Origin: Myxococcota bacterium
GTDB taxonomy: Bacteria; Myxococcota_A; Polyangia; Polyangiales; Houyiibacteriaceae
Direction of reading: 5' to 3'
Assembly: GCA_039030295.1 (NCBI GenBank)
Contig: JBCCEK010000005.1
Span: forward strand, 1-61,549
DNA length: 61,549 nt
Positions 41,474 to 44,785 of the stretch are shown one piece after another. The notes under the pieces are model-generated. The model was given only the letters and a program-made list of their open reading frames with translations. It made no database searches and was not told the DNA's origin. The position numbers and the translations under genes are program-made. How positions within the stretch are numbered: position 1 is the stretch's first letter; each line of letters begins with the position of its first letter.

Positions 41474-42112
41474 ATGCCTGGTGGCTTTTTGATCGTAGAG
41501 GACGAGCCGACCCTGGCCCGAACGCTGGCGAGAACGTTCGGGCGCCACGGCCCCGTCGATGTCGTCCACAATATGGCCGCGGCCCGTGACAAACTTGGAA
41601 CACACGCCGAGTGGACGGGCGTCGTCCTCGACTTGATCCTGCCTGACGGTTATGGCCTCGACCTTCTGGCGGAGATCCGGGAGCAGTATGGGGCACTCCC
41701 CGTTCTGGTCCTGACGGGTGAGCTTAATCGTGATGTAGTTAACAAAGTGCAGACGATGCGCGGCGAGTACGTGTGCAAGCCGGCGTCCGCCGACAACCTG
41801 AACCCGTTCATTCAGCGTGCCCTCGCACAAGAGCGGGTCGACGACGCCGCGATCGGCCAACGCATCGAGCACCTCGCGCGCCAGCTTCGGCTGACCCGCC
41901 GCGAGACCGAGTTGCTGACGCTCTCGGTCGACGGGCTCTCCCGAAAAGAGCTCGCGGACGCGCTCGGGGTCGCCGAAAACACGGTCAAGGCGCAGATCCG
42001 GTCACTCCTCAAGAAGAGTGGCGCCCGGAGTCTGGCGACCCTGGCACAGAAGGTCATCAAGGGCGCGGCACACGAGAGCGTCCCGCCTGGGCCCCCAGTC
42101 ACGAGCGGCTGA
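41474..42112 (+). CDS. Response regulator, REC + LuxR-type HTH
   Basis: IVEDE, VLDLILPDG, LTG and KP receiver motifs; LTRRE..L...G.S.KELA..LGVAENTVK HTH. Confidence 0.92.
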   Translation: MPGGFLIVEDEPTLARTLARTFGRHGPVDVVHNMAAARDKLGTHAEWTGVVLDLILPDGYGLDLLAEIREQYGALPVLVLTGELNRDVVNKVQTMRGEYVCKPASADNLNPFIQRALAQERVDDAAIGQRIEHLARQLRLTRRETELLTLSVDGLSRKELADALGVAENTVKAQIRSLLKKSGARSLATLAQKVIKGAAHESVPPGPPVTSG

Positions 42113-42989
42113 GCACCCGCTCGACCTCGTCGAGATCGTCGTGGACTTCGATCCGGTTTGTCGGGGTCGCGGCTGCCGCGCGGCCGCCCGCGAGTATCCG
42201 GACGCCGGGCGGGGCGGCCTTCTCGATCGCGTTGAACTCGCGTGCGACCGCTTCTGGGTCGAGATTGCTGACCGAGACCATGATCATCTTCGCGTTGGCT
42301 TCCCGTGCCGCAAATGCGATCTCCTCAGCCGGTAGGTCGGCGCCGAGATAAAGCACGCGCCAACCGTGCATCGTGGCCAACATCGCGACCATCAGAGCGC
42401 CGAGTTCGTGCCGCTCGCCGGCGGGTGTCGCCACGACGGTGACCGGCATGGCGTCGCTCGCGGGGTACAGGCGCATGAGCGAAAACAGGAGGCCACGCAT
42501 CACCGTTGAACTCGCATGTTCGTGTGCAATTCGAAGCTCACCTCGCTCCCAACGATCGCCAACCTCGCTCAGGATCGGCCCCACCACGCTCCTCAGGAAC
42601 TCCCCCGGCTCCGTCCCGAGGGCCGCACGCGACAGCATCTGCTCGGCCCCGAGGACGTCGAGGTCTTCGATGGAGGCGATGAACCGACGCCTGAGAAGCT
42701 CGAGCCTATCGGCCCTGTCGGGTGTTTCCGCGGATGGGAGCTTAGCGGCCATGCCTTGGAGCTCGGCCGTCGGCAGCCGCGCGATTCCGCCGATCGAATG
42801 CCCTTCCGCGACCAACCGGCTGAGGACCCTGAGCCGGGCGACGTCCGCATCGTTATAGAGGCGGCCGCCCGCCTCGGTGCGATGCGGAAGTACCGCGGCG
42901 TACCGCTTCTCCCAAACGCGCAGGGTGTGGGTGGAAAGCCCGGTCATCTTGGCGACCATCCCGACGCGGTACTTGGCTTCGTCCTTCAT
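42099..42989 (-). CDS. carH: CarH/LitR-type MerR-family repressor with cobalamin-binding domain
   Basis: MerR wHTH (LRVWEKRY, RTEAGGRLY); W-x9-EH (WERGELRIAHEH); B12-binding ERHELG...LGADLP...VSVS...AGG. Confidence 0.88.
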   Translation of the reverse strand: MKDEAKYRVGMVAKMTGLSTHTLRVWEKRYAAVLPHRTEAGGRLYNDADVARLRVLSRLVAEGHSIGGIARLPTAELQGMAAKLPSAETPDRADRLELLRRRFIASIEDLDVLGAEQMLSRAALGTEPGEFLRSVVGPILSEVGDRWERGELRIAHEHASSTVMRGLLFSLMRLYPASDAMPVTVVATPAGERHELGALMVAMLATMHGWRVLYLGADLPAEEIAFAAREANAKMIMVSVSNLDPEAVAREFNAIEKAAPPGVRILAGGRAAAATPTNRIEVHDDLDEVERVLSRS

Positions 42990-43033
42990 GCCGGCATAGC
43001 CCTTACGGAGCAGATGTGCTCTTTGACACGATC

Positions 43034-43055
43034 CTGTCTAACCCATGTCTATACC
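43034..43055 (-). promoter_or_regulatory. Putative CarH operator (two 11-bp direct repeats) upstream of carH
   Basis: Minus strand ggtaTagACAt-gggtTagACAg matches nnnnTnnACAn with exact 11-bp phasing. Confidence 0.72.
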
Positions 43056-43104
43056 TGGGATTCTCGCCAATCAAGCATTCACTGAGAAAAGCTGCCCCTA
43101 CTCC

Positions 43105-43132
43105 TTGACGACTCTCATTGCCGTAGTAGAAA
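43105..43132 (+). promoter_or_regulatory. Putative sigma70-type promoter of the DUF4397 gene
   Basis: TTGACG (43105-43110), 16-nt spacer, TAGAAA (43127-43132), directly abutting the operator repeats. Confidence 0.45.
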
Positions 43133-43163
43133 GCTGTACAAGACCTAGACATGACTTAGACAG
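43131..43163 (+). promoter_or_regulatory. Putative CarH operator (three 11-bp direct repeats) upstream of the DUF4397 lipoprotein
   Basis: aagcTgtACAa-gaccTagACAt-gactTagACAg, perfectly phased, lying between the promoter and the GGAGGAG RBS (43167-43173). Confidence 0.82.
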
Positions 43164-43177
43164 GTCGGAGGAGAAAC

Positions 43178-44044
43178 ATGATCAACAAAACGACATTGGG
43201 TATCGCGGTCGTCGCCATGCTGAGCTTCGGCATGGTCGGCTGTGGGGATGATAGCGACACGGGCACAGGTGGCTCGGGCGGAAGCGCGACCGGCGGGACC
43301 GGCGGTGGAACCGGCGGCATGGGCGGCGACGGCGGAGCCGGCGGCGGCCTCCTAGGTAGCGGCGCCGTGACGGCGGTCCATTTGGCTCCCGACATTCCGG
43401 CCGAAGGCGACACCGCGGTGGCGATCTTCCTCGACGGCGAGGAGACCGAGTTTCAGGTCTCGTACACGGAGTCCTCGGGTCGCATCGAGCTGCCTGCCGG
43501 CACGTATGACATCGGCATCGGGGTTCCCGGTGGTGACGAGCCCGTTCTGCAACTCGACGGCGTCGAGATCATGGATGGGTCCGATCTGACCGTGGTCGCC
43601 TATCGCACCAACGACCCACCCCCGGCCGTCCCGGTCAACGTGTTGGTCTTCAACACGTCCATCGATGGGCTTGAGGCCGGCTCGGGCCGCGTGTTCATCG
43701 GCCATGGCGCCAATGACCCCGCACTTGATCCCGTCACCGTGGCCACGGTCGATGACCCAGTCACCACCTGCACCGACGTCGCTGCCGACCTCGGCTTTGG
43801 CAACATCGCACCCGAGATGGGCGGACTCGACCTCGCCGAGGGCAACCTCGACGTGGTGTTCTACACGGGCGAGACCTGCCCGCCGTTCTTCGCCGACCTC
43901 ATCGTCGATGTCCCCGTGACGCCGGACGTCTCGAGCGTTCTCATCGCGGTCGACGAGGATCCCACCGACAACCTCGCATTCCAACTCTTTGGCATCATCG
44001 ACGCCGATGATCCTGCCCCGCTTATTCCCCCCCCAGCTATGTAA
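43178..44044 (+). CDS. DUF4397-like acidic lipoprotein
   Basis: Strong RBS; lipobox MVG-C; GTGG-rich linker; two beta-rich repeats (AVHLAPD...AGTYDI; RVFIGHGA...), resembling the DUF4397 vHaspDap pattern. Confidence 0.8.
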   Translation: MINKTTLGIAVVAMLSFGMVGCGDDSDTGTGGSGGSATGGTGGGTGGMGGDGGAGGGLLGSGAVTAVHLAPDIPAEGDTAVAIFLDGEETEFQVSYTESSGRIELPAGTYDIGIGVPGGDEPVLQLDGVEIMDGSDLTVVAYRTNDPPPAVPVNVLVFNTSIDGLEAGSGRVFIGHGANDPALDPVTVATVDDPVTTCTDVAADLGFGNIAPEMGGLDLAEGNLDVVFYTGETCPPFFADLIVDVPVTPDVSSVLIAVDEDPTDNLAFQLFGIIDADDPAPLIPPPAM

Positions 44045-44084
44045 ATCCTAATCCTCTTCCTAGACACCACGCGCTTCGGCGCAC

Positions 44085-44122
44085 GGGCCGCTCATCTCCC
44101 GGTGAGCGGCCCTTTTCTTTTT
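44085..44122 (+). terminator. Rho-independent terminator
   Basis: Stem GGGCCGCTCA (44085-94) / TGAGCGGCCC (44103-12) followed by TTTTCTTTTT. Confidence 0.88.
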
Positions 44123-44164
44123 GCACCGTTGACGGCGAAGGCTTCTCCTAGGTAGGACGCGAGG

Positions 44165-44785
44165 GTGGGCGTAGACAGCGGTCGGTTCGAACGGGTTCGG
44201 TGTGCCGCGTGCGTGTTGGCGGCTGCGCTCGTGGCCCAGCTCTCGGGATGCACCGAAACGACGGATACCTCGCCGATTCCGAGCTTGATACCGCTTCCCT
44301 CGTTGCCCGCCGATACGCCAGCCGACCCCTACCTCCGCTCCGACTCGAGGTTTGGCACGGTGCATCTGCACGCGGGCTTCAATCCTGACCCTCGCATCGT
44401 CGAGGGCACCGCCGACGGTCAGCTCCCCGCGAACACGATTCACCGTCGCTGCCGCGGCTGGACCTCGGCCGAGCCCGACTACCTGCTCTCCGCCGATACT
44501 GCCTTTCTTCAACTCCACGTTCTCGGTCGCGCGGAGGTCGCGCTTTCGCTGGTACTCCGAAAGCCGAACGGACGCGTCGTCTGCAAGAACAGTCGGAGCG
44601 CCAGTCGCGGGGTCGTGCTCCGGACGGACCTGCCTCTTGGGACGTCGCAGTTGTGGGTGTCCGTGGCCGAGGAAGGTGCCAGCGCTCCGTACCGACTTGG
44701 GTTCTCCGAGGTGTCGTCGCGGCCGACCAGCATCCCGGCTCCCGAAGACACGGTCGAGCCCGCCGCGGCGCCGAGCCCGCCCTGA
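44165..44785 (+). CDS. Hypothetical lipoprotein (GFxPDP / PPC-like beta domain)
   Basis: Lipobox LSG-C; LHAGFNPDP...CRGW....PD...LVLRKPNG..C pattern. Confidence 0.65.
   Translation: MGVDSGRFERVRCAACVLAAALVAQLSGCTETTDTSPIPSLIPLPSLPADTPADPYLRSDSRFGTVHLHAGFNPDPRIVEGTADGQLPANTIHRRCRGWTSAEPDYLLSADTAFLQLHVLGRAEVALSLVLRKPNGRVVCKNSRSASRGVVLRTDLPLGTSQLWVSVAEEGASAPYRLGFSEVSSRPTSIPAPEDTVEPAAAPSPP

Follow-up and report, generated by a model that had tools for sequence, protein, structure and literature searches.

The stretch of DNA analyzed here, called the window throughout, comprises 61,549 nucleotides of a Polyangiales genome of the phylum Myxococcota (positions 1 to 61,549 of contig JBCCEK010000005.1, assembly GCA_039030295.1) and carries a carH gene and a gene of the DUF4397 family arranged divergently around a 188-bp spacer at 42990-43177. 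Our analyses make it likely, at a probability of roughly 0.82, that the two genes form a divergent two-promoter cassette under a CarH-type, adenosylcobalamin (AdoCbl)-dependent photoreceptor. CarH is a well-understood photoreceptor and optogenetic tool that is known to act chiefly on genes for carotenoids and DNA repair; the main output of this compact, conserved cassette is an exported protein of a family without known function. The switch itself is of the conventional CarH kind, and its class of target is new and recurrent; the novelty lies in the tight, conserved, and recurrent coupling of CarH to an exported DUF4397 protein, with an operator lying over start site and leader. The parts of the cassette, their conservation, the regulon neighbors, and the recurrence of the pairing were observed directly in the genomes compared below.

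A CarH-type regulator divergent from a DUF4397 gene

The cassette consists of the following features.

42099-42989, minus strand: carH, CarH-type repressor of 296 aa with MerR helix-turn-helix, four-helix bundle, and Rossmann B12-binding domain
43178-44044, plus strand: gene of a predicted DUF4397 lipoprotein of 288 aa with putative signal peptide and lipobox, Gly-rich tether, and two beta-sandwich domains
43131-43163, plus strand: DUF4397-side operator, three tandem 11-bp nnnnTnnACAn repeats, AAGCTGTACAA / GACCTAGACAT / GACTTAGACAG
43023-43055, minus strand: carH-side operator, GGTATAGACAT / GGGTTAGACAG / GATCGTGTCAA, repeat 1 overlapping the putative -10
43048-43053, minus strand: putative -10 of the carH promoter (PcarH), TATAGA, kept as GGTATAGAC in relatives
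43070-43075, minus strand: putative -35 of PcarH, CTTGAT, 16 nt from the -10; GCTTGAT in most relatives
43105-43110, plus strand: putative -35 of the DUF4397 promoter, TTGACG, deduced from relatives
43127-43132, plus strand: putative -10 of the DUF4397 promoter, TAGAAA, 16 nt after the -35, its 3' end overlapping operator repeat 1
43168-43174, plus strand: ribosome-binding site (RBS) GGAGGAG, recognized by eye and kept in relatives
44071-44122, plus strand: intrinsic terminator, a small hairpin, then a G+C-rich 12-bp hairpin, then a T-run

The initial annotation had named the regulator CarH from three motifs, RxWExRY, W-x9-EH, and ExHxxG, an identity that domain searches and alignment bear out. 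Pfam places a MerR-type winged helix at residues 7-72 (PF13411, MerR_1; E 3.7e-17), and the C-terminal module comprises PF02607 (B12-binding_2; residues 100-168, E 2.5e-11) and PF02310 (B12-binding; residues 184-284, E 1.1e-13). The alignment with Thermus thermophilus CarH (5c8d) covers residues 5-280 at 33% identity (E 5.3e-31), and in it RxWExRY, the W-x9-EH cap, and the ExHxxG lower-ligand motif, the last two reading drWergelriahEH and gerHelG in the window protein, all stand opposite their Thermus counterparts. In this family, W-x9-E-H forms the cap over the 5'-deoxyadenosyl group, and E/D-x-H-x-x-G carries the lower axial His. Judged by these features, the regulator is an ordinary CarH-family member with the traits of class I CarH/LitR proteins.

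Two operators in the spacer

The exact string TAGACA-N5-TAGACA occurs twice in the window versus 0.01 times expected, a count that none of 100 shuffles reached, and both copies lie inside the spacer, one (43146-43162, plus strand) directed toward the DUF4397 gene and the other (43035-43051, minus strand) toward carH. The phased nnnnTnnACAn repeats that the initial annotation had described upstream of the DUF4397 gene are indeed present, with T..ACA at 12/12 specified positions, and form the sole 12/12 triple in the assembly (the window's own genome, labeled G000; 4.83 Mb in 397 contigs), where triples of at least 11/12 number 12 versus 0, 1, 3, 3, and 3 in five shuffles. This operator runs from inside the putative -10 to the RBS, covering the likely transcription start site and most of the 5' untranslated region (UTR). 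A second operator, which the initial annotation had not listed, scores 10/12 with two perfect repeats and one degenerate, faces carH, and overlaps its putative -10. Both sites display the class I CarH/LitR operator trait of at least three tandem nnnnTnnACAn repeats over promoter elements, and the available part of PMC9304148 gives the same consensus for CarH operators, with a three- or four-repeat architecture. Because one of the two operators faces carH, the gene is probably autoregulated. At the other end of the cassette, the strong terminator that had been noted is confirmed, with a main stem of 12 pairs (44085-44112; nine G-C), a T-run after it, and a small hairpin before it; a double hairpin with T-run follows the DUF4397 gene in 21/22 parsed operator-linked orthologs, and the reading of the gene as a monocistronic unit is thus supported.

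Conservation within the genus

Comparisons were made in a same-genus set of 36 genomes and a species-representative set of 32 DUF4397 loci (G, L, and C labels denote genomes, loci, and contigs of the comparison set). An ortholog of the DUF4397 gene is found in 30/36 same-genus genomes, and the CarH ortholog, at 60% identity or more, in 30/36 as well. Among the 30 genomes with a DUF4397 match, 19 (own genome included) have the CarH ortholog in divergent orientation at a distance of 184-296 bp, and it is the divergent neighbor in 20/32 species-representative loci. A three-repeat operator of at least 11/12 precedes the DUF4397 gene in 27/32 loci; of the other five, two are partial paralogs of distant kinship, two run into a contig end, and one has a scaffold N-gap. 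The 24 distinct DUF4397-side regions, a count that leaves out one of 25 aligned rows because it is a carH-side site, share the consensus aAccTggACAAGACCTAGACATgACTTAGACAG then GTCGGAGGAG, with TnnACA kept in 23, 24, and 21 of them for repeats 1, 2, and 3, and nearly all have TTGAC(G/A) 16-17 nt ahead of a TAnnnn hexamer. On the carH side, the consensus is GGTATAGACr-N4-TTAGACA-N5-TnnACr, and of the 21 loci with a CarH ortholog, 18 have a triple of at least 10/12 and 16 have two perfect tandem repeats. The two checks that the initial annotation left to comparative data, carH-DUF4397 synteny and conservation of the repeats, are therefore both strongly positive, and the promoter-operator-RBS-gene-terminator cassette is nearly invariant across this uncultured Polyangiales genus.

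The neighborhood is conserved with it, in the order FHA/T2SSE ATPase, response regulator, carH, DUF4397, orf206, and inositol monophosphatase, which makes the cassette vertically inherited rather than mobile. At the same loci across the genus, identity ranges from 88-96% for the response regulator to 60-77% for carH and 36-61% for DUF4397, the last being far less conserved than the neighboring response regulator.

The DUF4397 protein

PF14344 (DUF4397) matches residues 64-184 of the protein with a score of 36.0 bits (Pfam cut-off, 30.6), and the gene represents a divergent branch that falls short of 1e-8 in a genome-wide PF14344 search. The putative lipobox MVGC (Cys22), with a hydrophobic stretch before it, was recognized by eye from the sequence; G21-C22 is invariant in an alignment of 16 orthologs (44-90% identity to the window protein), and the signal peptide of the Thermus homolog is of the non-lipoprotein kind. 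A Gly-rich stretch of ~35 residues follows, to about residue 57 and of variable length among orthologs, and leads into two tandem beta-sandwiches at about 58-162 and 164-277. The repeated beta-sandwich units opening with RVxH-x-x-P-D that typify DUF4397 are present: H68 (VTAVHLAPD) and H176 (RVFIGHGANDP) are invariant in the 16 orthologs, and their motifs align to the Thermus repeats.

The AlphaFold2 model, built on the ortholog alignment (pLDDT 71.2, pTM 0.69), is disordered over residues 1-57 and then has 17 strands. Its best structural match is the extracellular domain of PepT2, likewise two tandem beta-sandwiches, for which 5a9h_A superposes with Z 13.1 and a root mean square deviation of 3.2 over 177 residues and Foldseek gives 7pmw_A at E 2.8e-6, whereas the HGSNAT luminal domain (8tu9_B, Z 6.1) and AlgF (6d10, Z 5.8) resemble single DUF4397 domains. 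These PepT1/PepT2, AlgF, and HGSNAT domains share 8-12% identity with it and are docking or accessory modules without a common catalytic site; the matches being generic, no function transfers from them. A sequence search of the PDB gave nothing meaningful (best FliC, E 0.013), and searches of the ESM Atlas and of 5.8 billion proteins yielded nothing beyond DUF4397 and hypothetical proteins of Polyangiales metagenome-assembled genomes (MAGs). At four loci (L055, L056, L057, and L060), a longer tandem DUF4397 protein with 36-40% identity to that of the window lies behind the same operator, with 399-490 aa where the open reading frame (ORF) was parsed (L055, L056, and L057).

Regulon beyond the spacer

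A position weight matrix built from the repeats was scanned across the genome and across three shuffled genomes, whose highest scores were 16.6-19.5. Four sites score above these values: the DUF4397 promoter (37.6, the top score), one on contig C291 (32.8/28.9), the carH promoter (21.6), and one on C36 (21.5). On C291, the site is flanked by a lycopene cyclase gene and by a phytoene-desaturase-like gene (crtI), upstream of which cTTGACAagaccTGGACA-N5-TAGACA-N5-TGGACA places repeat 1 on the -35, with at least 10/12 in 26/29 orthologous loci. The genome-wide repeat scan that the annotation had suggested for defining the regulon thus returns the DUF4397, crtI, and carH promoters. The annotation had also called the module self-contained, a description that fails in view of the crtI operator on another contig and of two further CarH paralogs in the same genome (36% and 33% identity); the regulon is small but not self-contained. 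W-x9-EH and HExG are kept in all three CarH proteins, and in G026 and G013, a CarH gene of the C137/C176 type adjoins crtI. The paralogs are located as follows.

Contig C137 (L002:3802-4749): CarH paralog with TAGACA-N5-TAGACA upstream and a divergent hemerythrin gene
Contig C176 (L063:4132-5106): CarH paralog

The ACAAGACCTAGACA extension common to the DUF4397 and crtI operators argues for one protein specificity. It also bears on whether the stretch between -10 and RBS could be an RNA leader element, a riboswitch or attenuator, in place of a protein operator, as the unusually invariant bases of the spacer and a GACCT...AGGTC inverted repeat might suggest. We reject this explanation as scarcely credible: positions 43128-43200 fold at -7 kcal/mol with a z of +0.46, no better than 128/200 shuffles, no relevant Rfam match appears up to E 1, and the same extended motif recurs on the untranscribed crtI -35 and, inverted, before carH.

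The link to crtI raises the possibility that DUF4397 is a carotenoid-binding or -trafficking lipoprotein that delivers pigments to the outer envelope. Besides sharing its operator type with crtI, the DUF4397 gene is contiguous with crtI and carH in G030, and the five genomes without any CarH-family match (G014, G019, G024, G025, and G032) also have no crtI; four of them have no DUF4397 match, and in G019, the only one is a 2e-6 match to the linker. A light-induced lipocalin lipoprotein is, in addition, described in a Chryseobacterium crt cluster in the accessible text of PMC7064467. On the other hand, neither PF00494 nor crtI is matched in G020 (100% complete) or in G029 (87%), yet both keep CarH, DUF4397, and operator, and so does G017 (96% complete), which has no crtI and whose only PF00494 protein is of the squalene type also found in CarH-less G014. 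These absences are read from MAGs, which are incomplete, but retention of the cassette in genomes without detectable crtB/crtI weakens a strictly carotenoid-dependent role. Conversely, G004 and G011 have crtI but no DUF4397 match, and the DUF4397 model gave no lipid-binding fold match. We therefore consider a dedicated carotenoid carrier unlikely.

Other repeats in the genome were not assigned to CarH. Four phased TGTACA/TGAACA hexamers at 11-bp spacing (C155:2978-3020, L001) were set aside because they are palindromic; they lie between a sigma-54 activator gene and pspA (PspA/IM30) and are probably the site of a PspF-type enhancer-binding protein. At C36:225-275, two CTATACAC(T/C)GTATAGCTC palindromes 22 bp apart (TATACA repeats) precede a sulfotransferase-like ORF and look like the site of another regulator. 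Likewise not claimed as CarH targets are a C254/C55 site before a class II ribonucleotide reductase gene, a C63 site inside an ORF, a C41 site before cfa with only two in-phase repeats, and a C242 site whose score of 18.3 is within the shuffle range.

Recurrence in other Myxococcota and in Thermus

In a survey of 251 Myxococcota genomes (PF14344 at E <=1e-8, CarH-like at E <=1e-20), PF14344 was found in 79 and CarH-like genes in 141. Among the best 30 PF14344 loci, all outside the genus, eight have a CarH-like tblastn match within 1.5 kb, and in six pairs, Pfam confirmed MerR_1 and B12 domains in the regulator and a strong DUF4397 match in its neighbor: carH precedes DUF4397 on one strand in G161, G214, and G243, DUF4397 precedes carH in G075 and G079, and the two converge in G102; G179 has a seventh pair by coordinates only. 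The adjacent CarH-like gene is the only one of its genome in G102, G079, G161, and G075. CarH-type genes therefore flank canonical DUF4397 genes in several other Myxococcota families (at least six). Outside the genus, 52 genomes have both families, 17 DUF4397 only, 75 CarH only, and 93 neither, which gives an odds ratio for co-occurrence of 3.8 with a naive Fisher p of 1.5e-5, relatives not being independent. In G292 (L135 2895-4690), the promoter TTGACA-17-TACAAC, a CarH-type three-repeat operator (TAGACA/TAGACA/TATACA at 11-bp phase), an RBS, DUF4397, and a RudS-type gene for a tRNA 4-thiouridine desulfidase follow one another on one strand, the two genes forming a predicted operon.

In T. 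thermophilus HB27 and HB8, a DUF4397 gene lies on pTT27 8-9 kb from carH-ldrP, in a cluster that also holds crtB, a photolyase gene, and crtI, with uvsE in HB27. By coordinates, TTHB089 is this gene (79721-80386). It encodes a protein with a signal peptide and two RVxHxSPDAPAVDV repeats, which hhalign shows to be a homolog of the window family (probability 95.6%, E 1.1e-8). Takano and colleagues are said to have placed LdrP under light control through CarH/LitR in 2011 and 2014, and the promoters of the pTT27 cluster are reportedly light-induced. According to the sections of PMC7662524 at hand, the LdrP ortholog TTHB099 binds 79,627-79,642, 78 bp upstream of 'TTHB089, hypothetical protein', with a dissociation constant of 3.3 nM, a value bettered by only one of the nine probes, and TTHB089, the first gene of a three-gene operon, falls in the mutant (log fold change -0.78, p 0.045); the discussion there likewise has LdrP light-controlled through CarH/LitR. 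Binding data for Thermus thus exist, under the name of a hypothetical protein and not of DUF4397 in those sections. In HB8 pTT27 79558-82402 (L128 2559-5403), the operon comprises DUF4397, a methyltransferase, and an alpha/beta-hydrolase and is divergent from an MBL hydrolase gene; the published site of the LdrP ortholog falls in the spacer between the two, and YceI, flavin reductase, and SDR genes are nearby.

These partners also speak to the idea that the switch mainly reports B12 status, the lipoprotein being a B12-starvation protein, for example a corrinoid-capturing one in the envelope, and carotenoid co-regulation being secondary. The product would be exported and tethered as known surface B12 binders are, and genomes in which no crt genes were detected still have the cassette; moreover, CarH requires AdoCbl for DNA binding, as stated in what is available of PMC9304148. 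Elsewhere, however, the partners are light-related (crtI; in G292, RudS; in the Thermus cluster, photolyase, crtB, and uvsE), the cassette has no btu or TonB genes at its flanks, and, as a weak negative, no fold likeness to a corrinoid binder was found. The own genome, furthermore, has two cobalamin riboswitches for B12-responsive control, listed here, and a role centered on B12 status seems to us quite improbable.

C98:15938-16139: cobalamin riboswitch, 92.8 bits
C274:4031-4218: cobalamin riboswitch, 86.8 bits, followed by an ORF without Pfam match

Neighboring genes

Two genes adjoin the cassette in the window.

41474-42112, plus strand: LuxR/GerE response regulator gene, convergent with carH, the 3' end of which it overlaps by 14 bp
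44165-44785, plus strand: orf206, 206 aa, 3' of the terminator, with a lipoprotein-like N terminus (LSGC)

No match to orf206 was found in Pfam or NCBIfam, and it is syntenic with the DUF4397 gene in most relatives.

Discussion

The binding, the response to light, and the direction of regulation that we infer follow those of CarH from Thermus, Bacillus, and myxobacteria. With AdoCbl bound in the dark, CarH would oligomerize into a tetramer and bind each tandem-repeat operator, blocking RNA polymerase on the carH side from a position over the -10 and on the DUF4397 side from the -10 across the start site and the 5' UTR. When light photolyses AdoCbl, or when AdoCbl is scarce, CarH would leave the DNA, and carH and the DUF4397 gene would be transcribed. 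The same CarH, or one of its two paralogs, may also control crtI via the operator on its -35. The product would then be an exported, lipid-anchored protein with a long Gly-rich tether and two beta-sandwiches, acting in the envelope or periplasm.

Several observations weigh against this reading. A scan of 42900-44250 with the sigma-70 consensus returned no promoter, which is why the -35 and -10 elements are called putative; they rest on conservation in relatives. The third carH-side repeat is degenerate in the window, and the crtI operator is degenerate in 3/29 loci (G015, G026, and G008), two of them in genomes with CarH. The best NCBIfam model, TransRegCarH (NF052513), scores 138 bits and does not reach the 400-bit equivalog cut-off, a shortfall that bears on strict orthology to the seed of this narrow model and not on family membership. 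The one sequencing run that holds the stretch is of DNA, from a marine metagenome study, with no RNA dataset among those listed, and the fold, generic in the predicted model, gives no function. Outside the genus, adjacency was seen in at least 7 of the 52 genomes that have both families, and in 17, DUF4397 occurs without CarH. Within it, 9/30 genomes show no CarH adjacency, several of these being contig ends, the DUF4397 gene with its operator lies beside a 33-34% CarH paralog in three (G020, G021, and G023), and in G015, where carH is deleted in place and DUF4397 starts 266 bp after the response regulator gene (L033 3736-4000), the DUF4397 promoter and a 12/12 operator persist without a CarH ortholog. 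The three CarH paralogs per genome are accordingly all candidate binders, and with B12 motifs intact in all three, the DUF4397-side repeats might be bound by a paralog or an unrelated factor, the adjacent CarH only regulating itself. The carH-side and DUF4397-side operators have the same TAGACA-N5-TAGACA core, however, and adjacency of the ortholog is by far the commonest arrangement, so that we give this explanation little chance and favor control of both promoters by the adjacent CarH.

As for the output, our best guess is that DUF4397 binds, or forms a scaffold for, some component of the envelope required in the light, rather than being a dedicated carotenoid carrier. The recurring pairing suggests that the DUF4397 family is part of the bacterial light response. 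More broadly, and at somewhat less than even odds, we tentatively propose that DUF4397 proteins may be an unrecognized cross-phylum class of exported light-response effectors, repeatedly recruited by CarH/LitR regulons, through direct wiring in Polyangiales and other Myxococcota and via LdrP in Thermus, and with a role that does not depend on carotenoid synthesis, such as the binding or shielding of a part of the envelope that is damaging or damaged under light. DUF4397 gains a testable physiological context, light and/or B12 status in the envelope, and the cassette provides a promoter-operator-RBS unit that is very short, well defined, and light-repressible. Its hosts are uncultured marine Polyangiales, for which T. 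thermophilus can serve as a tractable knockout model. Our search of main texts found DUF4397 mentioned in seven papers, none of them on light, and no paper tying it to CarH/LitR.

Comparison with known systems

Envelope lipoproteins and small non-carotenoid products are known from other light responses. The light-induced lipocalin of the Chryseobacterium lacus crt cluster is likewise an outer-membrane lipoprotein of unclear role, but its fold is unrelated to DUF4397, and its authors found no CarH there (PMC7064467, as far as available). The class II LitR operons of Pseudomonas (phrB-litR-rudS) form a light regulon of the MerR/B12 family whose small outputs are not carotenoid genes, and RudS, which belongs to these operons, also follows DUF4397 on one strand in G292; Pseudomonas LitR is of a different class from the window CarH, however, and the accessible portion of PMC11417400 reports no DUF4397 there. 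Closer are the myxobacterial CarH systems of Myxococcus xanthus, Cystobacter, Sorangium cellulosum, and Haliangium covered in the available text of PMC9304148, which share with the window the phylum, the AdoCbl-dependent repression at tandem repeats that is predicted for the window, and the link to crtI; Sorangiineae and Nannocystineae likewise have divergent promoters and a pair of differing operators. In these systems, as presented in that text, carH pairs with crt genes and the operator lies on the -35, whereas in the window, the conserved partner is DUF4397, crtI is unlinked, and the operator is downstream of the putative -10; a lipoprotein or a partner of 'unknown function' is not mentioned in that text. 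None of the CarH paralogs of the window genome resembles the B12-independent CarA, as all three keep the B12 motifs. Thermus CarH (LitR) has the same domain architecture and cofactor motifs as the window protein, and its operator, in the same portion of PMC9304148, also consists of three tandem 11-bp nnnnTnnACAn repeats. The DUF4397 protein of Thermus carries a plain signal peptide, and its gene is the first of an operon with a methyltransferase and a hydrolase, whereas that of the window is a predicted lipoprotein encoded monocistronically; and in Thermus, the DUF4397 operon is reached indirectly via the CRP/FNR activator LdrP, whereas in the window, the CarH-type repeats lie directly on the promoter.

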